Source: Naegleria gruberi (Eukaryota). Taken from it: a stretch of 64,000 nt of DNA. A program made the position numbers and the translations under genes. Positions within the stretch are counted from its first letter, which is position 1. Each line of letters begins with the position of its first letter. Below the pieces are notes generated by a model that was not told the origin of the DNA, ran no database searches, and saw nothing but the letters and a program-made list of their open reading frames with translations. Below, one piece after another: positions 7,461 through 27,627 of this stretch. The stretch lies in NCBI GenBank assembly GCA_000004985.1, contig GG738868.1; one strand, given 5' to 3'.

Positions 7461-10431
7461 TTAAAGAGCTGGAATTTTCCTAGATCTCAACTTTTCAATT
7501 AATGATAATATTGCAGGGAATATTACCAATACGTTAAACAATAAAATACCTTGTCCTAAAATAATAATATCGAAAAAGTACTTTTTCACAATCTTGATAT
7601 CATGAAATGCAAGAGGCAGAATGCTGACCACAGTTGACAAGGAACAAATCAATAAAGGAATAGTCAAGAGTGTATATGCCTTCTTTACACTCTTTGTTAG
7701 AATAAATGCCTTTGTAATCTGGAATAGATATTCTGAAAATAATCCAATTTGAAGTGTGAAATTCATAATTGATAATCCATTAATAGGAATTCTTAATAAT
7801 CTCAATCCAGCAACTAGTTCAATTAAAGTTATCAAAGTTAAAAAACAAGTAATGATGGAGCAAATTAAAATATTAATGAAAAGAGAAAGCTTTCCATTTT
7901 TCAGAATTGGAATCTCAAAAATTGATGTTACAAAAACAGAGACAATGGCAACTGACAGAATGGCAAGTGTACAAATAATACCAACATTGAATGGATCACT
8001 GGCAAATGATTCGAATATTAAATCCATGTCATTCACAATGAATGAGTTCTTGGTTGGTTTCAGTCCTGTCTCTGGATAATCAATGGACAATTTTTTCATA
8101 AATTCCAAATTTTGCTTTTCAATAACAGCTGTCACTTCTGAATTCAAAAAATTCTTATTCGAAAAAACAATTCTGGCAGCTGTCATATTATTCGAAACTT
8201 GCTTTGAAATAACAAAGCTTGCCAAATTACTAAATAATGTGTGATGAGTGAATTCATCCATCCAAGAGTTGAACTTTTGTGGAGGAACCTTAAATCTGTT
8301 AGCTCTAAACTCTTCTGAATGAGAACTCATAAAAAATATCCAAGTTTTAAAGTAAGAAAACCAATTGATTTGAGCTTTCATAAATGTTGGGGGAGATTCA
8401 TAAACGTTTTCCAATAAATTCGCCATAGAGGGTGATGCAAAGTCAATCCTATCATTTGTAGAATTTTCCGTATTGTACATGACAAGATAACCTGGATATT
8501 CCAAATCTCCATAATGTGAATTGTAATGATGTAAGAATGAAGTCAACTGAGATGACTTGGCATATAGATCTGTCATGGTGAATGGTTCCTCTCCTATTGA
8601 GGCAATAATTGTAATTGAGCCAACAATTCCACAAATAGCCAATAAAATCAAGATTACATGAACTATTGGATATTTTGGTTTGTTGAATGCATAATCGAAT
8701 ATTTTGTAAATTATTCTATCGACTCGATATTTAGGGAGGTCATCTTTCTGTGATTCTGGTTGCTGTTCTACATTTTCAGTAACTTGCATTTCATCTAATT
8801 GAGTAAATTGAATTGTTGGTTCCTCTTCTGTTTCTTTTTGAGCTGAGTTCTGGTTAACTGAACTTTCCATTTCTTCTTCATCAATTTCATTACCTTCTTG
8901 AATATTATCTTCTGCATTGTCCAAGTTCATAGAGTCAGTACTTGGAACTGGAACAAATAATTCCTGTCGTTTCGAATTAAACTTGAATTCCAAAACCAGT
9001 AGAGGAGTAATTCCAAAGATTGCTGTAAAGAAGAGGAAAATAACTGAAACCATAGTTTGCCAAGCAACACTAAACAAACATAATGAGAACCTCCATTTCA
9101 CAGAGAAACTTACCTAATTGCCATTATTATTGGATGTTTCATTACTATAACAACGAACATTAAAATACAGCACATCACAATGAGTGTGAAAATTAATGCA
9201 GAGATGACTTCTCTATAGTATCTACCAGAATTTTTAACAAACTTTTCATATAATGTTTCATTCTCACTTTCATTGGTCAACTCTGACAAACCTTCTCTAT
9301 ATCTATTAAAATAGGTCTGTAAAATGAATAAACCATCTGATCCAATACCAACCAGAAATAGTGGTAAAGCCTGTGCACTGAGTGGATTCAAATTATATCC
9401 AAATATTAAATGAACAATTCCAAAAGATGAAAAGATATCCATCACAATCAAAATAATACTCAAAAAACCAATTAATATTCTCAAAATGATCGAATCTTTC
9501 GAATCTCCTCTCATCAGTACAAGTGTAGTCACCACCATAACAAGAGTAATTGAAAAACTAATCAGAAACATTGGACCAACACTCACAAATGTATCTGTAA
9601 TATCTTGTGTTAATGAATATTGAGAATTATAATATAAGGTTACATTTCCTGGAGAAACATATTCCACATTCTCATTCAATTTCTCAAATTTGTTCAATTC
9701 TTTTCTTGTTCTTTCCATTAAATTGGAAAATTCCTTTTCCCAAGCTGTAATTTCATTTTCATGATCTGAAAGTAAAATTGCATAATATTTAAGAGCTTTA
9801 GCCTTTAAAATTGTTGTCTTGATAGGATTCCACTCAACTGATCCTAAAATTGATTCAGACTCCAATAAATCTCCACTTGACAATCGTTTAGGAATGGACA
9901 AGGTTTTGTGGATATTCGAATCTTTCATTAATTTATCCTTATTGAAATCCCAAAATGACATAATATCAAGAGTCATACATCCACTAGAATCCATTCTCAA
10001 GCAAATATCTTCAAAAAACACATTCTTCCCATCAAATGTCGTTGAATTTAATTGATTGACTTGATTAATTATTTGATGAAAATATAAAATTGTATCTTTT
10101 GATATAATATCCATTGTTTGATTATTAACTTCACTCACAGTTAAAATAATGCTCACTGCTCTCATATATATTTAGGAAACAATAAATTCATTTCGTCTCG
10201 TTTCAACTTGGCATTAGAATGTGAATGTGTTAAAAGTTTAAAAGGATCCGAATCAATTTTTAATTTCCAAACACTCAATCCACAACTCGCCAACAAAATC
10301 ACCAAACAAACACAAAAACTAATTATTGGATATTTAGCAGGAAGTGTCAACATCATTTTTTCAGTGTCAACAATCATGTGGAAGGATGAACCTGAATGCT
10401 TCAACAACACACTTGTGTATGCACCTTTCAT
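7461..10431 (-). CDS. Patched / Dispatched-family (RND superfamily, sterol-sensing-domain) 12-TM transporter-like protein, about 990 aa. Exon 2 is 10165-9114, a 44-nt intron (GTAAGT..TTTAG) lies at 9113-9070, and exon 3 is 9069-7461. The N-terminal TM1 segment (10431-about 10166) is in a different frame (see findings).
   Basis: SSD-type helices including the GxxxD-like motif LFLVGIGSDGLFILQTYF. Two TM bundles, each preceded by a large extracellular loop. The ORF-track stop at 9110-9112 is the TAA inside AG|GTAAGT, and splicing gives ...HPIIMAI-S-VAWQTMVSVIF in phase. Confidence 0.75.
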
Positions 10432-10720: not shown

Positions 10721-13700
10721 ATGAAATTATTACATTGCTTGACATTTGTCATTCTTGTGGTGACATTGGTGTGTTCATCTCACCAACGTGAAATTATTTC
10801 ACTCTCATGTAGGTTTTGGTAGACTTTAATTTTTATTAACATGTCATGTTTAATATTTTTATATATTAATTTGCATCTGTCACTAATCAGGCAATGGTTA
10901 CATGCGTCTTTTGAAAGGATCTCTTCTAGAATCCAACATTAACATTGGTTTGGCCTATTCTGCTACTAATTATGCCATCGAACAAGCAAGATTAAGAGTT
11001 AATCAATGTCGTTGTCCATCAATTACTGAACGAAACTTCCAAAGACAATATGTTCCAGGTGTCGAAGGATTTTTATGGAATTCCATGAAGGGAAGAGCTG
11101 CTCTTGATACTTCATGTCCTGCACAATCTGATGCTCCTAATAACTGGATGCAAATGTCCAATTCTAAATATTTCGCACAAATTTCAAGTTGTAATTTGAA
11201 TGATGTTTCGAATGGTTCTCCATGTTTATTCTCACTTGCTCTTGGAAGTACTCAAATTCAAGTTGCTTTGGCTTCTTGTCCATCTGAAACAAGTGGAAAT
11301 CGTGCAACTTTTTCAATTCCACAACGTTTACCATATATTGCAATTCATTGTAAAGGTGATGATTGTGATAAGATTGGTTATCCTTGTCAACAAGATTCTG
11401 ATTGTGGTGGAAATAGTTTAACTTGTTGGGATGTTCCAAATAATGCTGGATATGGCTCAAATTTCCAATTTGGTTTTGGTTTCTTTTTTGCTGGAATTTA
11501 TAATCAATTCCAAACTTGTAAATCTCCAGAACAATTAATTGATTCATTGATGAAGACAATGTTGGCCAATCATTGGAGTCAAACTTCAACAAAGACCTAT
11601 ACTTCAATCAAGATGTGTGGTCCAAAGTTGGCACCAATTTTGAGTCCTGGAGCTAATGTACAAGCTACTTGTACTGCAAAGGTAGTTTCCAGAACTTTAT
11701 CCGAATCTCAAGAGACTCAACAAACTGCTGTAGTTCCAATGAGTGCTGATGTTGCTGCTCCTACTTCTGTTGTTACTGAAATTGCCATTCCACAAGCAAA
11801 GAGAACTGTTTCATCAGTCCAAGATTCTGTTTATTATTGTGGTGGTGTTGATTCCACATCTGCCTCTGTTTGTAGTGGAAATGGTTATTGTTCCCTCGTT
11901 GCTGGTAACATTGGTGTCTGTAAATGTAATTATGGTTATGCTGGTTCTTTGTGTTCTCAAGCAATTATGTGTGGTTCTTACAATTCTACTAATCCATCAG
12001 TTTGTAATGGACGTGGTTCTTGTCACACTATTGCTTATAATCCATTGAGTTATTGTTCATGTACTAAAGGATATACTGGAGCTCAATGTGAATATTCAGT
12101 CAGTTGTCCTAGTTGTCAAAATGGTGGTGTATGTGTCGCATCCTCAGGTGTTGTTGGTAAATGTCAATGTACTGGAACCAAATTTACTGGTGAGCTCTGT
12201 GAAAAACCTGTCACTTGTAATGGTATTGCTGCTACTAGCCCAGATGTCTGTTCTGGACATGGTTCTTGTGTTTTTGCCACTCCAAACTTTGAAGATGCTG
12301 CTACCACCTCCACTGAAGGTGTCTGTGTGTGTTATTATGATTATATTGGTCCAAGTTGTAATACCACAACATATAATCGTACATGTACCATTTCCTTGTC
12401 AAGTGTCTCTTCATGGGATGGTATTTTAGCTGATGGTTCAAATATTGTTGCTTCTGAAAAGAGAACTGCCTCAATCTCAGTTCCTGTTGATCCATTGTTC
12501 CCATCTTATGATACAAACAAGTATACTCTCATGTTGAAATATGATTGTAATGGAGTTTTGCAATTTGGTCCAAATTTGATGACAATTTACTCACCAAATA
12601 TTAATTACGGATCTACCACAATCGAAACTGTTGTTAATTCCATCTTTTCATGCAATAATGGATGGACAAGTGAATTGAGAAGAGTTTTGGTTCAACCTTA
12701 CAATGCTAAAGCTTGGTTGGCTTTACTTTCTTCCAATTCTAATACTTTCTCTGCTGGTTCTTGGACTATTTCACCAATGCAAAGAATTATTTCACTCCTT
12801 TCATTGAGTACTTTGAACGTTCAAATGCCATCCACTTGTACCTATTCAGATTATGAAACCAAAGGTTGTAGATTCACCTATACTAATCTCTTCTCATTAT
12901 TGGACAGTCAAATTAAAATCCACGTCCACACCTCTCGTTGTACAAACAATCCAGAAGGCATTCCAAACTTCTACCTCTTCTGTGAAGGTAATCTCTGTAA
13001 GCAATTATTGAATGCTCAAACATGTTCATCAGATGCTGATTGTGGAGATAACATTAAGTGTACTAATCCATTGAGTGATAATAATCTCAACGCCAACTTG
13101 TTGGATATTCTCTTCTTGGGTAATAGTAATGCTGGATGTGTCAATAATAATAATGAAACATTCTATAGACAAATTGGAGATGCTATGGATTATTCTATGG
13201 GAAGAACCAAAAAGTCCACAAATGATTTCAAGATTTGTTTCCCAAATGTCAATACAGTTTCTAATACTGCCAAGAATTGGGCTGATGCTTCTTATTCCAT
13301 TTCTGCTGGAACTATTACCTTGAAGGGATTGTTTGCATATGATGGTCCTTCACCAAGTTCTGTTGCTCCACCAACTGCCTTGAAGGTTTCAGATGTCACT
13401 GCTGCAGGTGCCACTTTCTCATGGACTGCTTCAGTAACTGCCGCAAGCTCAATAACTTATTCTTTGGTAATTAGAGATGCTGTTGGAACTCAAGTTGCTT
13501 CAGTTTCATCTATTTCTGGTACTAGCTATGTTCTTTCATCTGGTCTCTCACCAGTGACAACTTATACCGCCTATTTGACTGCTGTCATTCCAGCTAGTGG
13601 CTCAACTGCTGCTCAAGAATCTTCTGCTGTCTCTATTGAAGTTTCTACTACTGCTGGTTCATCAGGTGGTTCTAATAGAGTTCCAGGAGGTGTTGGTTCA

Positions 13701-14138
13701 ATTACAATTGTTGTCAAGATTGCTAGTCCAATTCCAAAGGGTGGCTCAATTACCCTCAGTTTACCAAATGGATATGTTGTCTCAATTGTTCAAAAGAGAG
13801 CAATTATGGCTTCAACAATTACTGTTACAGATGCTAGTGGAAGTGAAATTACTATTAGTAATGTTAATGTCAATGGCAACACCATCTCAGGAGCTGTGAG
13901 CTCTCAAGTTTCTGTTGGAAAGGTTTCTATTGCTTTAGGTTCTGTTAAAAATCCAGATACTGCCTCCACTTCAGCTTCATTTGGAAGTATTTCAACTGCA
14001 GATGCTTCAGGAAATGTGATTGAAAAGGTTACCATTTCATTACCACCAGTCAATTTTGCCACTGTTTCAGGATCTTTCATGATTAATTGTTCCTTGTTGA
14101 TTATTTCAATTTTGGCTGCATTCTTAATGATGCTTTAA
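10721..14138 (+). CDS. Secreted or GPI-anchored surface protein with multiple EGF-like Cys repeats and FN3-like modules, about 1100 aa. Exon 1 (10721-10787) encodes signal peptide MKLLHCLTFVILVVTLVCSSHQ. A 103-nt intron lies at 10788-10890 (GTGAAA..AATCAG, phase 1). Exon 2 is 10891-14138.
   Basis: EGF-like spacing (CSGNGYCS..CKCNYGYAGSLC, CNGRGSCH..CSCTKGYTGAQC, CQNGGVC..CQCTGTKFTGELC). FN3-like segment SDVTAAGATFSWTAS..YTAYLTAV. Hydrophobic C-terminus LLIISILAAFLMML. Exon 1 and exon 2 phases match (C + GC gives Arg). Confidence 0.65.
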
Positions 14139-14161
14139 TCAAATGAAAATAAATCATAAAT

Positions 14162-15100
14162 TTATTCGTCATCTTCCTCTTCACTCACATCATCAACTAA
14201 ACCCTCCAATTCACTCTCTGCATCGAAATCATCTGGTAAAAAACCAAAATTTGATAACCATTTAGTAAACCATCTAACACCATTATTGGATTCTCCAACA
14301 TATTCAGCTAGTGTTGATAAATTAGTCCTATTCACAACACTGTCAGAAATTATTTCCAACATGTTCTGCTGCTCATCATTTGAGGATATTAGAGATGGAA
14401 TTAGTACAGAAAGAGTGAGATCAAAATCATACGTTGTTGGATCATCAGTTGAATATTCAGTCCAACGAGAATTGCCACTTGCTGAAATTTCAAATTTAAA
14501 GAATTTGGGTTTCTTTGGAACAAAGTATAATCCCTCAATCAACTCAGTATCCAAATAGTAATGCGAAATATATTCCCTAATATTGTGGTAAGTTTTGTTA
14601 TTTGAAGTTTCTATACGTGGGTTTTTGGTAATGATATTGAAATCTTTTGAATGGTGAACGAGATCTTTTTTCGAAAAGTTGTAAGATTCATCATCAGAAC
14701 AATAATCAAACTGTACTGCTTTTGGTTGTCTATTTAGGGATCTAATCTTTAAAAATTCAATATCATCCTCATCCAATTCATCATTTTCAATTTTTAAATG
14801 TTCCAATGCAAGTTTCCACAAAACAGTTAAATTGTGAATACTCCCATTCCAAGTTTTACAACAATTTCGTGGTCCTTGTGCAATTCTTTCCAATGGATCC
14901 AAATACATTAAAATATGAAGAATAATTTCGTCCGGAATATTCGATAATAAATCAAGAATTATTCTTCCGCGAACCTTGTGGCAATGTTTAATCAGAGTTG
15001 CAATTTCTAAACAGGATAAACTTTCCACTTGTTCACAAAATTTAGTTATTTTGTTTGGAGGTGAAGAATCTTCATCATTAGAAGAATTTACTCGTTTCAT
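14162..15100 (-). CDS. F-box domain protein (312 aa) with an acidic C-terminus
   Basis: ATG start. F-box consensus LLSNIPDEIILHILMYLDPLERIAQGPRNCCKTWNG. Confidence 0.55.
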   Translation of the reverse strand: MKRVNSSNDEDSSPPNKITKFCEQVESLSCLEIATLIKHCHKVRGRIILDLLSNIPDEIILHILMYLDPLERIAQGPRNCCKTWNGSIHNLTVLWKLALEHLKIENDELDEDDIEFLKIRSLNRQPKAVQFDYCSDDESYNFSKKDLVHHSKDFNIITKNPRIETSNNKTYHNIREYISHYYLDTELIEGLYFVPKKPKFFKFEISASGNSRWTEYSTDDPTTYDFDLTLSVLIPSLISSNDEQQNMLEIISDSVVNRTNLSTLAEYVGESNNGVRWFTKWLSNFGFLPDDFDAESELEGLVDDVSEEEDDE

Positions 15101-15183
15101 TTTTTTTCTATTAGATTTTTCACATATCTACTACATAATCTCAATTCTCTAAATCAATGAATCGAATATTATTAGTTATTTCT

Positions 15184-18100
15184 TCATTCACCTGTATGCC
15201 TGACCAATCCATCACCAACCAATGATGTACCTTCAGTGATTTCATTCATTTCCTCATCAAACTTTGTTGCTTCAATAACTTCAGTATCAATTGGATTGAC
15301 ATGATACTTATCCTTCAAAAGATATGTTTTACATAGTCCTTTTCCTTTCACTTCCACCATTCTTTCTTCAAATTCCATACCTAAATCATAAACTCTTTCA
15401 TAGGTAGATCTGGAAATATGAATTCTTCCAGGTAATGAAGTTGATTCCATTCTTGAGGCAAAATTAATAGTATCTCCCCATAAATCCTGTTTGTTGAAAT
15501 CAATAATATTGAAAGGAAGTTCAACTTACGTAAGCAAACTTTTTCTTACCCAAAACTCCAGCAATAACACTTCCAGTATTTAAACCAATTCTAATATTGA
15601 CCTTCTTATTGTTTTCTTCGTTATATTTGTGAATTACAGAGAGAGTATCAATGGAGAAACGAAGAGAACGTTCTGGGTGATCTGATTGAGGATAATTATG
15701 AAGACCTCCCACACAAAAATATCTTTGTATGGCAATTGCAGTTAGTGAACTCAATTTTGATAAAAGACAACTTACGCATCCCCAATTGTTTTAATCTTTT
15801 CCAAATGATAAATCTCTGTCAAATCATCAAATGCATTCACAATAGCTCCTAGCATTTTGATGAGCTCACTTGGGTTCATTCCACTACTCAATTGAGTGAA
15901 ACCAACCCTTTAACATTTGTTATTAAAAAGAAATTCAACTACAAACTTACATATCCGAAAAGAAACAAGTAATATCTTGGAATTTTTCTGCAATTTCAGT
16001 TTCGCCTGATTTCAATTTGATGGCAACTGCTTCTGGAAGGATATTCCTAAGTAATATATCTGAATTCTTCTTTTCTTCATTGAGAAGATTATTCTGTTTC
16101 TTCTCCATAGTTATATCTTTGAAAAATCCAACAATAATTGTCTTTTTATCCTCATTCCTGGTAACAAACAGATTGAGGGAAGCTGGGAATCTTGTTTGAT
16201 TTTTTCTTACACAATCTACTTCATATAGCTCACCTCCTTGTGATTCCAAATACTTGTTTCTGTTATCTATGAATTGTTTCAACGCAGTTTCATGAGATGA
16301 GTCAAACAAATGTTGCATAGGTAATCCCATAACTTCAGACGGGTTCTTGGAGAACATCTTTTGAGCTGCATTGTTGAATAATAGGATTTCTGATTTTTCA
16401 TTTGCTATGAAAGCTCCATCAATCATTGATTGTAGAATATTACTAACTGCATCTGAACCTTTAACTGCAGAATTTGATTTCTTGAAATTCCACATGGGAA
16501 TAGTTTTGTAAAATACAAAGTTTTTAAACTCTTCATTAGATTCTATCCACTCTGATGGGACATATGCAAGGAAGGATCTAAGGATAGTCATCTCATTGTC
16601 AAACTCTGTTATGCATCTATAGAAGTACCATCCCAGTACTAGCATAGAAATTATAGTTATGCATAATACAATTATTGAGAGAGTTCTATTTGGGCTTTCA
16701 GTATATTTTACTATCAAATCTAAAAAGTGATTGATTCTAGTTGTAACAAAGTCATTCAAGTTGTAAAGATACAAAACATCATAAAATCTTTCAATGGTTT
16801 TCTTAGCATTTAGAGGATTGAATAAGTTCTCTGTGGCTTCTGCAGCTTTAACACAGAAAAACGTGATTAAATCAATGAGGCTTGTACAATTATTCATGTG
16901 CTCAGTAGTATTACAATTTGAACCAATTAACATTTCATCTATTTCATCAAAAATTCCTATTAGCTTGTCAGTATTATTTGATCCATATACTATTTGATTG
17001 TAACTTGAATGTAATATTTGCACGTGATCTCTATTTTCTAATCTGTATTGATCAGCAAGTGCACTAGTGACAACAGCTGGATGATTAACAGCTTTTCCAA
17101 GAGGTAGTACCTTATATGAAAATATTTCATTCAATCTTTGAGTCATTCTATTAGAAACTCTCACCATGTAACTGGCTAAATCAATGTTGAACATTGCTTG
17201 CTCTGCTTTGTCAGTATTATCTGAAAATTCATAATAAAACAAAACGATGGAAACTATTATCAAGACGCATATGATTAATCCAACAATTAAGGTCTTATTC
17301 TTTTCATTAGGCATTAACTGTTTGTCAAATTTTTTCATCTCATCATGTTTGGATTGCTTTTCCAAATCCTGATAAATGAAACCAGGAATGTCTTTTGGCA
17401 ATTTTTTGAACATGGAGAGTACAATAGAAAATATCTCCATTTCAATTCTTGATATTATTAAGAATGTCAAAAAAATTCCCAGTACAGAAATACCAATGCC
17501 AATAACAATATTGAGTAAGAGATTTCTAGTTTCATCGATAAAGGTCTTTTGGCTAACTTGCATCGATTTACAAAATGCTAAGAAAGCATCAGCACCTGTT
17601 CTTCTATTTTGATAAATATACATAAACTCATAACTACAATATTAATATTATAAATTTGAATTCTTCTTACCTCGTTACAACTTCATAAAATTTCATCTTT
17701 CCATTCATAACTGAATTTTCAATGTGTTCCAAAATGACGGAGTTTACTTCTCTTGTAGAAGCATATCTTTTAAAAATGTTAGTAAACTCTTTCCTTATTC
17801 CTGTATCGTTAGGGAGTGGAATATTGATAAGCTTATCTTCTATTGTAAAATCAGTAAACATTCCAGGTGTAAATACGCCTGAATTGGAGTTCTCCTCCAA
17901 CTTTCTTAACGCTTCTCTCTTTAGTTCAATCTTTTCCATAAAGGTGCTGTTGAACAATTGTATATTATCGTATTCTGTTGTATTAACCAATGGAAATGGA
18001 CTTTTTAAATCATCATAAAACTCCCAAACTATCTGAGCCATTCTCAAATTTCTAAATAAACCACCATAAGTACTCTGGATATAACATGAATCCTTAATAA

Positions 18101-20324
18101 GAGGAGATTTTGACAATAATGTTTGATAATAATTAGTTAATGCAAAACAAACAACCACCGTAGCAATACATAAGGAGAACATGAAAGCATAAGCAATTGT
18201 TCTTATTTTGGATTGGTAAGGAGAGCTGAGAGCATTTCGCAAAGCTTCTTCCTTTTTGTTCTCTGAGAGATTTTCTATTCCTTCAAAATCTTGTTTGCTT
18301 GTGAGAATTTCATCATCATCTTCTCTGAAGGCCTTTCTATCAACAGGGTAGATTCTCAAACTTGACCTTAAATTTCGTTTCAAGTTAGGTTGTTTGTAAT
18401 GCTTTGATTCCTCTTCTTCTAGAACTGTCGCTTCTTCAAACAGTTGACTTGATAAGTTCTTGTCCAACTTGATGGATTCCACATATTTAGCATAGTGCCG
18501 TATAACAGTTTTATCATGTGGGAAATTCTTCATCAAGATTCCGAAATTTTCATCACAATACCTAGTTAATTTTGCTGAAAGAGAGTTTAAATTGGCTAGC
18601 TTTGATGTATTTGGCCTTTCAATAGTAAGCTCTTTCCAGAATGCTTTATGAGCAATTTTGAGCTCCTCTTGTTTCTTTTCAAGAATAGAAATTGCATTCT
18701 TAATCTCTAATGTGTACCGACCTTGACATGACAAATTACTTTGATCTCTTTCAAATTGTTTCACTCTATAATGCATATTGAGAGTTTCCCAATAATTTCC
18801 TCCTAAACGAGATGCTTTCTTTAATAGATAAAGTGAAAAATTATACCTATTTGTATCATTCCATCTGTGTCCGATCATTATGGCTGAAGTTGTTATCAAC
18901 TTGGGATCATTAAACTGTTTCTTTGTGGAAATTCCCTTAATAAATGAAACCACCAATTCAATATCTTGTGCGGAAGAGCAAAATCTCAAAAACAATTTCA
19001 GTTGTCTTAGAGAATTTTCTAATGAAAGATAGATTTCGGCCGATTCTTTCTCTGTAGAATAAGAATCTTGTCGAGAATAGGAATTCCTACTAGCCATATG
19101 GCCAACAACAGCAGATGGAGATTTCATTATTGACCGTATTCTTCTCATGATTGATCTAGTGTAAATTTCTCCAATCAATACACCAATAATGGAGAAGATA
19201 AGTGACAATCCAAGAACTATTCCGAAAAACATTGCAATTCCCATCATGTCTTCCATTTTAGAATTCACCAATGATGATACCAACACTCCAATGCTAGCAC
19301 CAACTGAGCAAAGTGTACTTGCAAAATGGATAGTATTCTCAAATCTTCTGAAATAGGATAATGTATAAATTTGCACAACAGCCACAACCAATGAGAGAAT
19401 CATGTGTACTATTGATCTGATGTATAAGTATTGTGGTGGTATTACAAACATGAATAGAATTCTGAATAAAGTAACAGAGAATGTCACCATCGTAGAGAGT
19501 GAATCTTCACATTGAAATGGAAGAGAGGTTTTGAGATCATTGATTGGCAAGATGAATGTATAAATTGCTGAAAAGCAACACAGCACAATCATGCCAACCA
19601 GACTAATTACTATCAGGACAATATTATTCGCTCCATAACACGTCTTGGAAGGAAATCTCATCAAGGTATAATCATTCAAATTACAATCAATAAAACTAGA
19701 CATTACAAACATCATGAAAGGAGCCATCAATAACATTACAAATGAATAAATAATCATGTAAAAATCAAGCTTTTCCTTCTTCTCGGCAAAGAATGATCGG
19801 GTCTTGAGTACCATTAGGAAGGGCAATACCATCATCAAGACAATAAATAGAGCTATTAAGGCAATAAATAATTCATAGGGAGATCCTAGAGCATCAATAG
19901 ACAATGTGAGCGGGAAATTTAAAACCCTAGCAACCCAACCTCCATAGAACCCAAATGGTGCTACAATCCGTGATGATAAGGTAGAAGCTGTATAATCATT
20001 AGAGTAGTAGGTTGATGAAAAATTAATAATCCATCCAATGAACATGTAATGTAAATGTAACCAACCAAACAAGACATAATAGCTCCAACCCTTCATATGT
20101 GTATCCGATACCTTTAAATTCACTAAATATTGCATCAAACTAGCATTGAAAATTCTCCTCAAATTAGATATCAATCCAGATTGTGAATCACTTGATGATA
20201 AGGAAGATGTGGATGAGCTAAATGATAACTGAGAGGCTGTATTTGAATCCAAGTTATTGTAGTTATTCAGGGTACCACCTATTGTTGTGGAACCATCATG
20301 CGTAACAGAGAACGACTCGTTCAT
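15184..20324 (-). CDS. Large membrane-anchored PAS-domain class III nucleotidyl (adenylyl/guanylyl) cyclase, about 1654 aa. Exons: 20324-17671, 17633-15951, 15907-15776, 15722-15530, 15486-15184. Introns: 37, 43, 53 and 43 nt.
   Basis: Splicing reconstructs the cyclase catalytic core FSDM|VGFTQLSS..IKTIGDA|YFCVGGL..RIGLNTGSVIAGVLGKKKFAY|DLWGDTINFASRMESTSLPGRIHIS. All donors are AG|GTAAGT, AG|GTAAGA, GC|GTAAGT or AC|GTAAGT with AG acceptors, and all phases are consistent. PAS-like segment LLFNNAAQKMFSKNPSEVMGLPMQHLF. More than 10 predicted TM helices in the N-terminal 900 aa. Confidence 0.85.
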
Positions 20325-21254
20325 TTTCTACGTTTTTTTTAAGCTCCTCCAATTTAATAAGGCTGGTGGTTCGTGTTTGGTGGTGAGAATCTATGATGCA
20401 CTGTTTTTGGTTGTACAACATGACCGTATTGCCAAGAGCGAAAAGGCCTTTTAAAGATTGCTTTTGTATCACACTGGTGGTAATAATATTCATTTGCAAC
20501 AATGTAAATGTGAATAATTTACCAAGAAATTGTTTTCAAGAGAACACGTTCCGAAGAATAGGATTAATATTCATGATGCTTGTTTAATTAATTTTTTGAT
20601 AATAATTTATTATTACTTTACTATTTAATTACTTGACGAGTTTGAAAGGTGAGAACAATAAAAAATATTTTCAAACTCTTCATCAAAATCGTCTTCTTGT
20701 CAGTTGTGATTCACAGCAATACTTTATAGTTTTGAAAAACATTGAATACACAGCTTTCATATGGAAGCATCATGGTTGGATTTTAGAAGATTTTATCACC
20801 AATTACGGATTTTGGAAAGCAATTATTATATTTATAAAAACTTTTTGTGGATTCATGGCGTGAAACCTTCATTGAAAAGAGTAAACATCAAGAATACAAC
20901 AATGAAGTGGGTATGTTCATGTTAATTCAAGAGGATGTTCAGCAATAGTTATTAATTTTATTTTCATTGTAATCAACAGCATGTAGAACAAAAACAACAT
21001 CAATTCCTTGTTCTACACCATCAATTACATCACCCCAGAAAGTTCCAAAACTTTCCTTCAAGCAATAGTGAAGAGAGGGAGAAGATGAAAGTAAAATTAA
21101 TAAACATCATATATTTGGTTTATTTTCGTCATATTATCCAAATTCTTTAAAAAATATTTAAACTTTATCACAAATACTATCATCATTCAATATGATTAAT
21201 AAAACATATAATGGAATAACAACAACATGACCATTAAAACAGTATTAATAATTA

Positions 21255-22100
21255 TTATAATTTATACTTCCACACCATATTGATGGAACTGTGAGGCTTT
21301 GGAATTTTACCAGCGAACGGCCTAATAACTTGTCCATTCTCATCCTTCATCTCAAATTCATCATAGATAATTTTACTCTTGGTTGCAAATCCCAACTTGT
21401 AAAAGACTCTCCTCGAATATTCACCCGAACACTCAACAAAGGCTTGCTCATAGCCTTGTGATTTACATTGCTCGAGATGGGCTTCTGCCAAGTGGACCAT
21501 CAATCCCTTGGATGCATAGAAACCATAGGTTCCTGCAATACAGACATGAGCAATCTTTCCTACGTGTTCTGGTGTGATGAGTGTTTGAAGGTTGTGGGAT
21601 AGAGAACCAGTTTCTTGTGGAGGATTGGAAAAGTACTTGTCTAGTAATTGTCCAAGTAATGCATCAATTACTCTATACTTGTTAACATCATAATTTGGAC
21701 CGCTTAGCATACCCTTCACGAAATCTTCACTGTATACTGTGGCTACTACCATACCACTGTCTCTGTCTACAGCCACTGTTCCCAATCCTTGTTCACATGC
21801 AGTGCTTACCAAACTCTTTGCAAATGGATAGAAATCCATTGGTGAATAACCGAGAGCATTATTGACTGGTTCGCTCTGTGAGAAGGTTAAACTTGTGAGA
21901 ATGGTTGCTTGTTCTGCATAGTCTGGAGTTAATGGCTTGATAACACATCGACTAATATTTGCCTTTTGGAATGAAGCATTGAGGGATAATGAACATTTAG
22001 AGAAGACTCCCTTGTATGAGGTTTTATGCAAGAATCTATTTGACACAAGAAGGTGTTTGAACATTTTTCTTGGGATTGAATTCATTCTCTCTGCCCTCAT
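21255..22100 (-). CDS. GNAT-fold N-acetyltransferase-like protein (281 aa) with a basic N-terminal extension (possible organellar targeting)
   Basis: ATG start. C-terminal GNAT-like core HVCIAGTYGFYASKGLMVHLAEAHLEQCKSQGYEQAFVECSGEYSRRVFYKLGF. Confidence 0.45.
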   Translation of the reverse strand: MRAERMNSIPRKMFKHLLVSNRFLHKTSYKGVFSKCSLSLNASFQKANISRCVIKPLTPDYAEQATILTSLTFSQSEPVNNALGYSPMDFYPFAKSLVSTACEQGLGTVAVDRDSGMVVATVYSEDFVKGMLSGPNYDVNKYRVIDALLGQLLDKYFSNPPQETGSLSHNLQTLITPEHVGKIAHVCIAGTYGFYASKGLMVHLAEAHLEQCKSQGYEQAFVECSGEYSRRVFYKLGFATKSKIIYDEFEMKDENGQVIRPFAGKIPKPHSSINMVWKYKL

Positions 22101-22538: not shown

Positions 22539-24545
22539 TTATTGAATCTCCTTATTTACCATGTTTTGTATCAAGGAAATTAATCTGTTAACATGTTCAT
22601 ATCCAGCAGCAGGCGTGTTTGTGAATGGATTCATAAAGACCATACGCAACACTTTCAAACAATTTCCTTCTGGATGAGAGTCACCCTCAAATTCACCATT
22701 CCACATTTTCACAGCTTGTTCAACCATTGAAGAGCTTTTGAATGAAGTCGTGGAGGCATAATATTCAGCATCAAAGTTTTCTGGAGAAAAGTATTGGAAC
22801 AATTTGGTAATTCTCATGTTGGTTTGTGAGAGCAGTTCACCCTTCTTGGCAATTACAAAGCATACAATGTTGCAGTCACCATTTAAAATGTAAATGTGTG
22901 GAATCTTTAAGAGCTTTTCTACAAAATATTGCTTGGTCTTGATGGAATGCAGGATGATTGAACCAAGCCCCTTGAAATTGAAACCAATAACTTTTGAGGA
23001 TAACCAAGTACCTAATACTCCTCCTACAGCTCTTGATCCCTCAAGAGAGACAGTTCCTCTCTCCCTACCTTGGAATGAAATGTATGGAGCATCACATTTT
23101 CTATAGAAATATTCTCGTTCTTCTCTTTGGATGTAAGCACCACATGCGTATGGGGCATAACCGAGTTTATGTGGATCAATAGTAATACTGTTTGCATGTC
23201 TCACAGCCAAAAGCCTCTTGATTAAATCTCTACCTAGAATGCACTCTGCATAATTCATGTAGGATTCAAAATCTAATGCGGCTTCATCATCTTGACATGC
23301 TCTCAGAGTTGACAACATAAATCCACCATAAGCTCCATCACAATGCAAGTACAAATCAATAGCTTCCTTTCTCCTCAATTCTTGGATCAGGTCGGTAATT
23401 TCATCCAATTTATCAAAATTACCACATTCTGTAGATCCAAATACTGAAACAATCATAAAGATTGGTCGGTCAACTTGTCTTGCCTTGTATACTAATTCTT
23501 TCAAATGTTCTGTTTTCATTCTTCCATCCTCATCAATATCCACATACCAAAATTGATTGAAATCAACTCCAAAGACATGAGACTTTGGCCACGAGTAGTG
23601 CTTATTATTTGGAACGATCATTATTGGAGATTGGAAGAATTCCTTCTTTTCAAATAGTTGTGTAATGTTAAAAGCTGCTTGAATCAAATCAAATTCCAAC
23701 ATGTATGGCTGTAATAATTCATATTTGGAATGGCCATTCTCTGAAACGAATTCATCAAACAATTCACTAATCTTATCATGGAGCTCCCATCCCATATGGC
23801 CAATATTGAATAGAGTGGAGCAGAATTTCTTCTCCTTTTCCGAGAGTGGAAGATTGTACTTTTTAGCCATGCATCCCATTGCAATCCAATCATAACATCT
23901 GGCTCTAGCTCTAACTACTGATTCAAAATTGGCCAAAGTTCCATCAGCTGTAAAGTGTCCATAGGAAGAACCTTTTCTGAAACCCAACATTTCAGAAATA
24001 TCCATAATACCTTCCTCCTCAAAATGTTTAGCAACACGTGAGAGTTGATGAGTACAAACATTAGGATTCTGCATTAATGAAATTATATTTCCATAAATTG
24101 AAGGCAAGGTATTATCATTCAACATGTGGGAGAGGAAATTAGTGGAGAAGGAAGGAATTTCATCCTTCATCTTTTCAATCACAAATCTAACCTTACTCTC
24201 CATCTTGTTATTCAATTCATCAATCTCCCTCTGCACTTGTTTACTCACTGAGGAAGGTTGACTCGTTTTTTCACATGGTTTATCAAACTTTCTAGCTTGT
24301 TGTCTTCTCCACTGAAAGCTCTCCTGTACAATCTCCTTAATCATTTCCATTGCCTTATCACAATGTTGTGCCTGTGGTCCAATAAACACTTGTTGGAGTA
24401 TTTGAATTTGCTTATCCGAGTCCCAACACTTGACATCACTCTCATCATTCTCAGCATCGGCAAAACCAAATGTCTTGGATGTATATCTTTCCTCAGCACT
24501 TGATGAACTTAGCGGTGAATGTTTACATAAGGCAGAGACTATCAT
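22539..24545 (-). CDS. Group II pyridoxal-phosphate-dependent amino-acid decarboxylase (aromatic-L-amino-acid / tyrosine / glutamate decarboxylase family), 668 aa, with an N-terminal extension of about 190 aa
   Basis: First ATG at 24545; the ORF-track start is TTG. Motifs TADGTLANFESV, HCDGAYGGF and the PLP-lysine motif SITIDPHKLGYAPYACGA. Confidence 0.8.
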   Translation of the reverse strand: MIVSALCKHSPLSSSSAEERYTSKTFGFADAENDESDVKCWDSDKQIQILQQVFIGPQAQHCDKAMEMIKEIVQESFQWRRQQARKFDKPCEKTSQPSSVSKQVQREIDELNNKMESKVRFVIEKMKDEIPSFSTNFLSHMLNDNTLPSIYGNIISLMQNPNVCTHQLSRVAKHFEEEGIMDISEMLGFRKGSSYGHFTADGTLANFESVVRARARCYDWIAMGCMAKKYNLPLSEKEKKFCSTLFNIGHMGWELHDKISELFDEFVSENGHSKYELLQPYMLEFDLIQAAFNITQLFEKKEFFQSPIMIVPNNKHYSWPKSHVFGVDFNQFWYVDIDEDGRMKTEHLKELVYKARQVDRPIFMIVSVFGSTECGNFDKLDEITDLIQELRRKEAIDLYLHCDGAYGGFMLSTLRACQDDEAALDFESYMNYAECILGRDLIKRLLAVRHANSITIDPHKLGYAPYACGAYIQREEREYFYRKCDAPYISFQGRERGTVSLEGSRAVGGVLGTWLSSKVIGFNFKGLGSIILHSIKTKQYFVEKLLKIPHIYILNGDCNIVCFVIAKKGELLSQTNMRITKLFQYFSPENFDAEYYASTTSFKSSSMVEQAVKMWNGEFEGDSHPEGNCLKVLRMVFMNPFTNTPAAGYEHVNRLISLIQNMVNKEIQ

Positions 24546-26091
24546 GACAGTTATTGGTGTTATTGTATTTGTTTTCAAATTATCTCAACTCACGATTCAA
24601 CAGCATGTTGATTCTCAAGTTATTGTTGTTGTTGTTGTGGATGTGCCTCTTTGGTATCAAGTCGCGTTGTGTTTGAGGTGACCACATCAAAGAAATCTGC
24701 AGAATTTTTTGGTACAATTAAGGTGATTATAAATAAATAAGGTCAATGACAACGTTGGGTTTTAAAACAAAATGGAATAGTCAATTTGGTAATATTAAGA
24801 AAATCCAAAAGAGGATGCCATGATGGTAGACGTTGAACTACCTTAATATACGGTAGGTGGACATTGAACGGAGAATGTAAACTTTAAAATTGTTTTAATA
24901 TTCAACCAATTCCAATCTCGTATCACAAAAAACATGTGTATCAATTAGAGCGTCGATTCGCTTATTGAAATTTCTAGATGATTAAGGAAAATATGGAAGA
25001 AGATATGGCGAATTAACTTCATTACTAAATTAGTAACAATTAATATTAATTTAATATGAAATCAATGAGAAGGAGTATTGATTCACATTGTTCTTTCTCC
25101 TCTCCTTATCACCTAATTGTTCACAATAATGTATAGTCAATCAAACAATTAAAGATGTTACATGGAATACCTCACATCTGAACAACCTCTATTCATTAAG
25201 TTTATTTTTGTACAGAGTGATGCAAGAGTAGGTACATCTAATTATTGAAAAATATTTATTTTATTTTATTTTTTAACATTAATTTTTTTAATAAATTATT
25301 TAATTTCCAAAATAGGACAAACAATGGCTTAACAATTCGAAAATAACTCAATTTACAGTATTACACACTGAACACCCTGGCTCAACCCTTTCCAATAAAA
25401 AAATCATCAATTGTAATCCAATCTTTCGAATCATTTCTAATACTCAAAATCTTTCGGCAATTCGAAACAACACAAGAATCGATATAATTTCCATAATTAA
25501 ATACTTTTTCCAGCACGTTTACAATTATATTTAAAGTGTTGACTTTCACTTTCGAGACTAAACTTTCCCAACAAGGTTTTGATAGGAAACTCTTCAACAC
25601 ATGAAGAAAGCTTGCGACTCGTAAGGCAGGACGAAACTGGTTTTGGTTGTGGAAAGCAGACGAAATTCATGGAATAATAGTCAATATTTCGTGCACCATT
25701 TTACAATCATTATTTAAATATCCAATAGAAATTGAGAAAAACTGTAGACTAAAGGTTTCGTACAATAAAACAAAAATTGTATTCATCTATACCAGTCTTT
25801 ACCTTGCCAAATGAAATCATTAATTACGCAAATGGTAATAGACACTAATTGACATGGTGATATTAGGAAAGTCTTGACACTAATTGGACGTAACTGTTCG
25901 AAAGTAGTTTATCCTAAACTCGCCTCATTCGAACAGGTATGGTGTTAGGTAGACACATTAGTATAGAGTAAATACATTTCAACAAACGGGTTCCATACAA
26001 TTCGTTGAAACTACTTGATCTTCATTCATCTTCCGGAAGCATCTTTGAAAAAAAATACAACAAACGAAACAAAACTAAACAAAACTAAACA

Positions 26092-27627
26092 ATGAATATC
26101 GAGCTCAATGACACATCTCCTGCAACAGTCGACAAGACAAACTCTTCCAACAACTTTCTAGATGCACACAATGATGTACTCTCTGGAAGTTCTCTCGATA
26201 TCCACCACCATCCAAATTCTCCAACTTTTGCTGACCACCAACCAACTTCTCCTTCCTCACCTCCATCTGGCGTTAAATACAGAGAAGATTTCACCATCGA
26301 TATAGAAGCTGCCAAGCAATCTGCCTCCAAGTCTACAACCTCCAGATCAAAGACAGTTTCGTCTTTGAAGAGTAGGGATTCAGATATAATTTTTACTATT
26401 CATACATGTGTGGGAAAGATTCAATTATCCAAATTGAGATTATTTAGTTTGGTTTCCTTGTTCATTAACTTGGCTTCCTTTGTCATATTAGCTGGTCTTA
26501 TCATTGCTGCTTTCGTCCTGCAAGATCAATATAACAATTTTTGGGAAGGTTTGGACACAGACACAACCTATTATAGACAACGAATGATTTCTGCTTCGAG
26601 AATGTCAGTTTTTTCAAATGGTGATAAGGCAACCACAAAGCTATACTATGATGAGTATGTGGTCTACATGTGGAAGTTTAGTAATAACACTGGGTTGTTC
26701 AAGACAGTTGTTCCTGAATCTGTTAGAAATGCTGCCTTAAAAGGAAAGACTAATCCTGAATTGGATACAACCAAAGCTGTTTATCAAGAACAAGGAGCCA
26801 TGTTTTTGGCTATGGCTGGTAATTATACTACGGCCATGTATTTGTTAAATTCTGCAACTTACAAGACTTATTTAGCTGGTTATGATTCAGAGTTTCAAAT
26901 TATGGTTGACTATGTTCAATCTGCAAAGAAACAAGCTCAGAATGTTTCTGTGGTCATGGTTACAGTTTCGTTGGCTGTTATTTTATTCTCTCTCGTATTG
27001 GTAGTTCCTGTCATTATTTCTTCATTTGTAGTTTCGATTAAGAAGGACGAATCTGTTAATAGAAAACTAAACCAAGCTAGAACCTTCTTATTGATTGATA
27101 CCATGCAACATGCCAAGATGAGACAATTATTTAGAAAGCATTGTGAAACAGAGTTGAGTTTGGAAAATTTCCAACTTTTAGAAAAGATTACCGATTACAA
27201 AATGTATTGTGAAAGAAGTTTCGAAATTCAAGAATATTTATACGAAAGCAGTGAAAGAAGTGATACCATTTCAGATATTTCTGCTGAAAATAAGAAGAAG
27301 GGTTATGCCAAGAAGAAGTTCAATGAAAAGGATTTGCTCGAATGTGAAAAGAAGAAATACGAAATTGCATTCGAAATTTACTCTGAATTCTTGGATGTCA
27401 GAGGTGAGAAATCTGTCAATTTAAACAAGCAGATTACTGAAAAGGTCAAGCAACACTTGGATTTATTCGCCACTGGTCAGAATGAACATTTAATCGATTC
27501 ACTTTTCGAACAAGTCGAAGCCGAAACTTGCATTGTCATGTTGGATTCTCATCACAGATTCAAGCAAACCATCGAATTCCAAAAACAAGCCAAGAAGGAT
27601 ATTATTACCTCAAAGAAGAAACATTAA
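26092..27627 (+). CDS. Two-TM membrane protein with an extracytoplasmic loop domain of about 140 aa and a C-terminal RGS (regulator of G-protein signalling) domain, 511 aa
   Basis: ATG start. TM1 LFSLVSLFINLASFVILAGLIIAAFVL and TM2 VSVVMVTVSLAVILFSLVLVVPVIISSFVV. RGS-like C-terminus LSLENFQLLEKITDYK..YEIAFEIYSEFLD..VNLN..CIVMLDSHHRFKQT. Confidence 0.7.
   Translation: MNIELNDTSPATVDKTNSSNNFLDAHNDVLSGSSLDIHHHPNSPTFADHQPTSPSSPPSGVKYREDFTIDIEAAKQSASKSTTSRSKTVSSLKSRDSDIIFTIHTCVGKIQLSKLRLFSLVSLFINLASFVILAGLIIAAFVLQDQYNNFWEGLDTDTTYYRQRMISASRMSVFSNGDKATTKLYYDEYVVYMWKFSNNTGLFKTVVPESVRNAALKGKTNPELDTTKAVYQEQGAMFLAMAGNYTTAMYLLNSATYKTYLAGYDSEFQIMVDYVQSAKKQAQNVSVVMVTVSLAVILFSLVLVVPVIISSFVVSIKKDESVNRKLNQARTFLLIDTMQHAKMRQLFRKHCETELSLENFQLLEKITDYKMYCERSFEIQEYLYESSERSDTISDISAENKKKGYAKKKFNEKDLLECEKKKYEIAFEIYSEFLDVRGEKSVNLNKQITEKVKQHLDLFATGQNEHLIDSLFEQVEAETCIVMLDSHHRFKQTIEFQKQAKKDIITSKKKH

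Follow-up and report, generated by a model that had tools for sequence, protein, structure and literature searches.

Among described class III nucleotidyl cyclases, the mammalian transmembrane adenylyl cyclases (tmAC) carry two catalytic domains per chain in the layout 6TM-C1-6TM-C2, where TM stands for transmembrane, and the metazoan receptor guanylyl cyclases combine an extracellular ligand-binding domain, a kinase-homology domain and one TM helix. The mycobacterial 6-TM cyclase is a homodimer with one catalytic domain per chain. At least 81 cyclases have been counted in Naegleria (PMC9928731), and 80, with diverse topologies and PAS domains, in N. fowleri (PMC9283941). Taken together, PMC9283941 and PMC9928731 (the latter citing Fritz-Laylin et al. 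2010) put the Naegleria complement at about 80-100 cyclases, which vary in topology and include PAS domains. Here, we describe a locus on the minus strand of a 64,000-nucleotide (nt) stretch of Naegleria gruberi DNA (contig GG738868.1 of assembly GCA_000004985.1; hereafter the window). Four open reading frames (ORFs) are listed at this locus, at 17667-20324 (885 amino acids, aa), 15947-17623 (558 aa), 15521-15754 (77 aa) and 15184-15450 (88 aa). We conclude that they very probably constitute one five-exon gene for a 1654-aa membrane-bound adenylyl cyclase, probably with 12 TM helices, belonging to a TmcB-like/PAS/class III family that is massively expanded in Naegleria. The protein has a single Guanylate_cyc stretch and ~12 TM helices, in contrast to the two catalytic domains of the mammalian tmAC, and it differs from the receptor guanylyl cyclases in its ~12 TM helices and in having no kinase-homology domain.

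The minus strand was read and spliced by script, and the removal of four introns gave a coding sequence (CDS) of 4965 nt, corresponding to 1654 codons and a stop. The resulting gene structure is given below, with positions in the family hidden Markov model (HMM) where an exon matched it.

15184-20324, minus strand: whole coding region, from the ATG at 20324 to the TGA at 15186-15184; 5 exons, CDS of 4965 nt, 1654 aa
17671-20324, minus strand: exon 1, 2654 nt; aa 1-884 plus 2 nt; family HMM positions 19-868
17634-17670, minus strand: intron 1, 37 nt; AG/GTAAGA...TTGTAG; phase 2
15951-17633, minus strand: exon 2, 1683 nt; aa 885-1445 plus 2 nt of codon 1446; family HMM positions 873-1417
15908-15950, minus strand: intron 2, 43 nt; GTAAGT...TTAAAG; interrupts the region of the FSD/MVGF metal-binding motif; no gap relative to the closest paralog, P0010
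15776-15907, minus strand: exon 3, 132 nt; MVGFTQLSS...EKIKTIGDA, with Lys1485 and Asp1489
15723-15775, minus strand: intron 3, 53 nt; GTAAGT...CACTAAC...ACAAAG, where CACTAAC is a branch-point-like motif
15530-15722, minus strand: exon 4, 193 nt; family HMM positions 1461-1524
15487-15529, minus strand: intron 4, 43 nt; GTAAGT...AAACAG; phase 0; between FAY and DLWGD
15184-15486, minus strand: exon 5, 303 nt including the stop; encodes DLWGDTINFASRMES and the C-terminal tail; family HMM positions 1525-1591

The original prediction had proposed a single gene of 5 exons and 1654 aa, whose ORFs are joined in phase by introns of 37, 43, 53 and 43 nt. The spliced sequence reproduced these sizes and this CDS, and an intronless paralog and a collinear family are in accordance with it. 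This paralog, P0010 (1736 aa), is the closest relative of the protein and clusters with N. gruberi XP_002672713 (NAEGRDRAFT_72081, 1736 aa). It has no introns, whereas the locus studied here has four short ones, and its single uninterrupted ORF (L001 754-5964, on an ENA contig) includes TPR_TmcB, PAS and Guanylate_cyc. BLASTP aligned the spliced protein to P0010 in one segment (aa 77-1622 to 109-1672, 39.8% identity over 1602 columns, 1089 bits), with a gap at none of the four exon junctions. Moreover, the Pfam Guanylate_cyc domain is found at residues 1433-1612, covering model positions 3-182 of 183 (E 8e-53), only once introns 2-4 are removed; these three introns are thus proven, because the domain is continuous only in the spliced protein, which agrees with the earlier description of a complete class III domain split by three introns. 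When the family HMM, built without the downstream exons of this locus, was run on the ORF pieces, they matched consecutive, abutting model positions (19-868, 873-1417, 1461-1524 and 1525-1591). The match of the spliced reading is far beyond chance.

All four introns begin with GTAAG and end with AG, none has a length divisible by three and each intron sequence was found once. The start is preceded by an in-frame TAG 6 nt upstream of the ATG at 20324, and the first residues, MNESFSV, are common to the spliced protein and a public N. gruberi fragment (P0009, see later in the text). A crude intron scan that required 50-codon flanks overlooked introns 2 and 3, since the exon between them spans just 44 codons. 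For intron 1, a second in-frame acceptor, AAATAG at 17604, lies 30 nt downstream of TTGTAG and would give a 67-nt intron; it could serve as a minor alternative splice site. The 37-nt form retains ten residues, SYEFMYIYQN, and is favoured over the 67-nt form because these residues are conserved in the paralogs, which keep the pattern S-Y-x-F-M-Y...N-R. The window is AT-rich (~32% G+C), and short GTAAG...AG introns are also present elsewhere in it, for example 44 nt at 9113-9070.

To delineate the collinear family, HMMER was run exhaustively with the exon 1 product (aa 56-884) as query, and it returned 90 cluster representatives, 36 of them at E<1e-30; six segments of the spliced protein were then mapped onto these representatives to compare the domain order. 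About 30 representatives of 1400-1800 aa share the order N-terminal TM bundle, TPR region, loop 1, loop 2, PAS and cyclase. Where the source of a relative was traced, it was N. gruberi, N. fowleri, N. lovaniensis or Willaertia magna, and Trinity transcripts of the amoebozoans Cavostelium and Phalansterium also encode TPR_TmcB, PAS and cyclase within one ORF. A word-indexed homolog search performed weakly on this hydrophobic, low-complexity protein (8, 2 and 3 matches), and an alignment query added only a Synchytrium protein.

The Naegleria and Willaertia paralogs (XP_002672713, N. fowleri FDP41_001627, N. lovaniensis C9374_007051) are collinear with the protein studied all the way from its first TM helix through the cyclase domain, and their catalytic residues are the same, with 40% identity to the closest of them. 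Their loops and PAS domains diverge from those of the protein studied, and the signals sensed therefore presumably differ among paralogs. They are publicly named 'predicted protein' or 'Adenylate and Guanylate cyclase catalytic domain containing protein'. The gene is thus an ordinary member of a very large protist cyclase family. An arrangement unlike that of metazoan receptor cyclases had been noted earlier, which holds; it is not peculiar to this locus, being standard in that family. With ~80-100 copies per Naegleria genome, the pathogen N. fowleri included, the family represents an untouched class of cyclic AMP (cAMP)-signalling membrane sensors.

The layout of the protein was established from hydropathy and from an AlphaFold2 model of aa 56-884 (mean predicted local distance difference test, pLDDT, 84.7; predicted template modelling score, pTM, 0.68). 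From the N-terminus, the order is an 8-helix bundle, TPR_TmcB repeats, two successive TM-loop-TM units, a PAS domain, a coiled-coil linker and a single class III cyclase domain, as follows.

19146-20087, minus strand: N-terminal membrane bundle, aa 80-393 (hydropathy, AlphaFold2 model)
18390-19070, minus strand: helical repeat region, presumably cytosolic, aa 419-645; helices in the model
18402-18707, minus strand: TPR_TmcB (PF25474) match, aa 540-641; 50.3 bits against a cut-off of 27
17453-18209, minus strand: TM9-loop1-TM10 unit, across intron 1; TM9 aa 706-738, loop 1 aa 739-926, TM10 aa 927-945
16628-17293, minus strand: TM11-loop2-TM12 unit; TM11 aa 999-1017, loop 2 aa 1018-1201, TM12 aa 1202-1220
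16109-16444, minus strand: PAS domain, aa 1282-1393; PAS_9 60 bits (cut-off 27), PAS 42.2 bits (cut-off 22.6)
15992-16108, minus strand: coiled-coil linker, aa 1394-1432; contains LLRNILPEAVAIKLK
15313-15991, minus strand: class III cyclase domain, aa 1433-1612, with introns 2-4 inside; Guanylate_cyc (PF00211) 179.2 bits, cut-off 21.9

In the model, the eight long helices of the bundle span aa 80-102, 150-176, 180-209, 232-258, 275-294, 297-321, 327-353 and 359-393, and the loop between TM3 and TM4 carries a Cys pair, C214 and C229, within the family consensus F-x-D-C...L-x-R-F-P-x-x-x-C. A disordered, acidic linker separates the repeat region from TM9. Because the cyclase must be cytosolic and the TM3-TM4 loop has this conserved Cys pair, the N-terminus and the TPR region are predicted to be cytosolic and both ~185-aa loops to lie outside the cell. 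Loop 1, predicted extracellular, consists of helices and a beta hairpin; loop 2, likewise predicted extracellular, is helical and contains Cys1125, 1134 and 1145. Altogether, Pfam, hydropathy, HMM and paralog alignment agree with the original prediction of a polytopic N-terminus with a soluble insert, followed by three more TM helices and a PAS domain. In a profile comparison based on the family alignment A3, the TM9-loop1-TM10 and TM11-loop2-TM12 units showed a weak similarity to each other (hhalign probability 66%, E 6e-5, 151 columns), which could come from an ancient internal duplication.

A structure model of a paralog (pLDDT 88.4), as distinct from the protein studied, resembled the fold of bacterial periplasmic helical bundles (the NIT domain of NasR, 4akk; the TorS sensor, 3i9w; and ligand-binding domains of 4HB/PilJ-type chemoreceptors, 6s18, 8bsa, 8wdf and 6gcv). 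Sequence identity between this model and the bacterial sensors is only 4-11%, no Pfam match accompanies it and designed proteins match equally well, the fold being simple. The bacterial sensor matches were absent from the first fold query, and we attribute the likeness, by subtraction and as far as the models go, to the complete region of loops 1 and 2. The modelled fold points to this region as a putative extracellular helical-bundle sensor.

Outside the cyclases of Naegleria, the N-terminal membrane module has relatives in distant eukaryotes. An HMM built from Heterolobosea only aligned end to end (model 221-1580) with a cyclase of Tritrichomonas foetus, P0005, and also with the ENA proteins P0002 and P0006, with Cavostelium P0083 and, in pieces, with Andalucia godoyi P0003. 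Two chytrid proteins named 'TmcB/TmcC TPR repeats domain-containing protein' were aligned as well, Synchytrium P0106 at positions 128-975 (E 2e-34) and Geranomyces P0088 in three pieces over positions 52-1241. They match the bundle, the TPR region and the loop units; neither P0106 nor P0088 has a PAS or a cyclase domain. TmcB/TmcC proteins ('tiny macrocysts', PF25474) thus share with the protein studied a TPR_TmcB match above threshold, and differ from it in that the chytrid members are without PAS and cyclase. Because the Heterolobosea HMM aligns to these TmcB/TmcC-named proteins, the membrane module is assigned, by sequence, to the TmcB family. The fusion of a TmcB module to a PAS-cyclase occurs in several distant eukaryotic lineages.

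That the N-terminal module might be a transporter- or channel-like sensor had been suggested in the original prediction, and a stronger form of this view, in which a cyclase would have been fused to a membrane module that by itself works as a transporter or channel, appears improbable. Such fusions are known, as in the K+-channel adenylyl cyclase of Paramecium and the P4-ATPase guanylyl cyclases of apicomplexans, and one match of our first search, P0004, is a cyclase of a different type with P-type ATPase domains, so they do exist. The module has eight to twelve TM helices, and some motifs within the membrane or the loops are strongly conserved (for instance P-F-x-R-R-x-E-N-S and G-x-S-I-G-x-L-I-S-x-x-V-N), which would also suit a transporter or channel. 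However, neither a channel nor an ATPase could be recognised in the membrane part, whether as a domain or as a fold, and a Foldseek search against the PDB gave no significant match. The bundle and the repeat region have no relative among solved structures; by sequence, the module is TmcB-family.

Dictyostelium tmcB is reported to regulate the cAMP pathway during sexual development, when macrocysts form (Muramoto et al. 2005, Mech Dev 122:733, as cited in PMC12750705, ref. 67). Our literature search found no paper linking TmcB to cyclases. We put forward, tentatively and as a possibility that we rate well below even, that the TmcB-type module, with its 8-helix bundle, its TPR repeats in the cytosol and its pair of helical-bundle loops outside the cell, may represent a receptor platform of ancient eukaryotic origin that serves specifically to control cAMP synthesis. 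It is fused to a PAS-adenylyl cyclase in Heterolobosea, Parabasalia, Jakobida and some Amoebozoa. In Dictyostelium and chytrids it stands alone and would work in trans on a cyclase; its extracellular part would be the eukaryotic counterpart of the bacterial periplasmic 4HB/NIT sensors. If this is true, the fusion would provide a 'Rosetta stone' for the cAMP signalling defects of Dictyostelium tmcB mutants.

The original prediction had called for HMM searches for PAS and Guanylate_cyc and for an inspection of the catalytic residues to decide between ATP and GTP. Both domains scored above the Pfam cut-off in the spliced protein. The best PDB sequence matches of the PAS-cyclase part are the mammalian adenylyl cyclases (AC) AC9, AC8 and AC5, with C1 and C2, and the mycobacterial homodimeric cyclases, at E 1e-63 to 1e-40, matched over the catalytic domain and the linker ahead of it. 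The key residues are D1445, K1485, D1489, R1534, D1555, N1562 and R1566, and the pattern DKDRDNR that they form is shared by 22 of the 30 other aligned cyclase domains. The metal-binding D1445 and D1489 and the transition-state residues N1562 and R1566 align with their counterparts in C1 and C2 of AC8 and AC9. K1485 and D1555 lie in the stretches EKIKTIGD and YDLWGD, whose counterparts in the C2 domains of AC8 and AC9 are EKIKTIG and YDIWG. In class III enzymes, Lys and Asp at the specificity positions indicate ATP, and guanylyl cyclases have Glu and Cys/Ser there. Because Lys1485 and Asp1555 occupy these positions, ATP is the predicted substrate, and the product would be cAMP and not cGMP.

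The class IIIa membrane cyclases (AC5, AC8 and AC9; the mycobacterial 6-TM enzyme; PDB 7yz9/7yzi, 5o5k, 4p2f and 1yk9) have the same metal, specificity and transition-state residues. In contrast, their membrane part is unrelated to the 8-helix bundle, TPR region and two TM-loop-TM units described here, and the protein studied differs from them in carrying a PAS domain between the membrane part and the cyclase and in having no C1/C2 pseudo-heterodimer. Since all catalytic residues are found in one chain with a single catalytic domain, as in the mycobacterial 6-TM homodimer, a homodimer with two active sites is expected here too. In mammalian AC8 and AC9, the counterpart of the linker motif LLRNILPEAVAIKLK in the alignments is the stretch that immediately precedes C2, which we take to be the 'cyclase transducer element' of class IIIa/b enzymes.

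These features can be combined into a mechanism in which the homodimer would have two symmetric active sites. In each of them, the two Asp of one chain would bind the metals, and Lys1485, Asp1555, Asn1562 and Arg1566 of the partner chain would bind ATP and stabilise the transition state. A signal might be picked up at one or more of three places (the helical loops outside the cell, the membrane bundle and the PAS domain in the cytosol), and would be conveyed through TM12, the PAS domain and the coiled-coil linker to alter the geometry of the catalytic dimer. Sensors of the bacterial chemoreceptor and histidine-kinase types and class IIIa cyclases are understood to signal in this way.

It is improbable that the protein is a guanylyl cyclase, or a catalytically dead pseudo-cyclase acting only as a regulatory module. 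The Pfam family spans adenylyl and guanylyl cyclases, the public names of relatives include 'Guanylate cyclase domain-containing protein', and a public model of the locus, P0001, has Glu and Thr at two catalytic positions. However, Lys1485 and Asp1555 match the C2 domain of mammalian adenylyl cyclases (EKIKTIG, YDIWG) and not the Glu/Cys of guanylyl cyclases, both metal-binding Asp are present together with the Asn and the Arg, and the Glu and Thr of P0001 stem from a mis-modelled exon 3.

P0001 (N. gruberi 'predicted protein', 1225 aa), the public NCBI/UniRef model of the locus, is 97% identical to the spliced protein over aa 308-931 and 92% over aa 1026-1654, including the mis-modelled exon 3. 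This model is wrong in several respects. It starts at aa 308 and is without residues 1-307; it takes the downstream acceptor in intron 1 (67-nt intron), so that SYEFMYIYQN is missing; it splices out aa 932-1037 (106 codons with TM10 and TM11), an open frame that matches the family profile; and its exon 3 is swapped for an unrelated sequence, so that the catalytic Lys1485 and Asp1489 become Glu and Thr. A 38-aa segment of P0001 (IFVCSGTQYSPMG...) matches the window only by a read-through into the start of intron 2 and by a short stretch just upstream of exon 4; the rest of this segment is encoded nowhere in the window. A second N. gruberi 'predicted protein', P0009 (526 aa), is 98.7% identical over aa 1-525 and covers only the N-terminal third of the gene. 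It lies on a small separate contig of 10,292 bp, which points to a scaffold of the reference assembly that is either allelic or duplicated. From these identities, the window comes from N. gruberi or from a strain or allele very close to it. The corrected gene model is of practical value, since censuses of 'active' Naegleria cyclases or expression constructs based on P0001 would be wrong. The gene is the correct reading of an already catalogued kind, from a functionally unstudied family whose domains are already in Pfam; what is added is the corrected model, the assignment of the N-terminal module to the widespread TmcB family, and a bundle and repeat region without a solved structural relative.

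Several points weigh against the assignment of these ORFs to one 12-helix, PAS-containing adenylyl cyclase. Splicing at the locus is deduced from sequence and homology only, and the enzyme activity, the substrate, the dimerisation and the topology are predictions. Sequon counts do not tell inside from outside in this AT-rich genome. The PAS domain gave only a weak match to the heme-PAS of E. coli DosP (E 0.004), limited to the first half of the domain; the heme-ligating His of DosP, at what we presume to be its position, appears unmatched in the alignment, and a nearby His of the PAS domain is not conserved in P0010. The NCRFL motif of the LOV Cys was not found in the spliced protein sequence.

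The gap between the two long ORFs had been given as 43 nt, which is right for the distance from the stop of the 885-aa ORF to the first ATG of the next; the intron itself is 37 nt. From the shortness of this gap a single gene had been deduced, a conclusion that is correct but an argument that is weak, because the next gene on the same strand, an F-box gene, has its ATG only 83 nt past the cyclase stop. That there is one gene is proven instead by the collinear family and by the paralog that has no introns. The least probable of the readings considered, and a very unlikely one, is that two genes lie side by side here, with the 885-aa ORF (ending at 17667) coding for a TmcB-like membrane protein and the ATG at 17623 opening a distinct gene for a 3-TM PAS-cyclase: although the 558-aa ORF does open with an ATG, cyclase-free TmcB-like proteins exist in chytrids (P0088, P0106) and the 83-nt spacer shows that very short intergenic distances are possible in this genome, the junction flanks VVT/SYEFMYIYQNRR align without a gap to paralogs that hold them inside one ORF or gene model, the intronless P0010 has the entire architecture in a single ORF, the stop of the 885-aa ORF is a TAA within the GTAAGA donor, the family HMM continues over the intron 1 junction (868/873), a split would sever the TM9-loop1-TM10 unit in the middle of loop 1, and the chytrid proteins themselves run well beyond the junction, to HMM positions 975 (P0106) and 1241 (P0088).

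Around the single cyclase gene, the F-box gene (14162-15100, minus strand, ATG at 15100) leaves in its 83-nt spacer little room for a 3' untranslated region (UTR) and a promoter. On the other side, the 930 nt upstream of the cyclase ATG (20325-21254) contain no ORF of more than 76 codons, which is unusually long compared with the 83-nt downstream spacer; this stretch presumably holds the promoter and the 5' UTR. Rfam and tandem-repeat scans of both strands of 14000-22000 gave no families and no repeats, and the plus-strand ORFs of this region are short only. No other cyclase paralog was found in the 64-kb window.

Further along the window, a 44-nt GTAAGT...TTTAG intron (9113-9070) at 7461-10165 on the minus strand appears to join a 351-aa ORF with a Pfam sterol-sensing domain (E 2.5e-6) to a 546-aa ORF downstream of it; this would be a second short-intron gene, probably for a Patched/NPC1-like membrane protein. 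At 10902-14138 on the plus strand, an intronless ORF of 1078 aa combines EGF-like repeats with a single fibronectin type III domain and ends in a hydrophobic C-terminal tail, a set of animal-like extracellular domains in an amoeboflagellate. Finally, a pyridoxal-dependent decarboxylase of 679 aa is encoded at 22539-24578 on the minus strand, and an RGS-domain protein of 511 aa at 26092-27627 on the plus strand.

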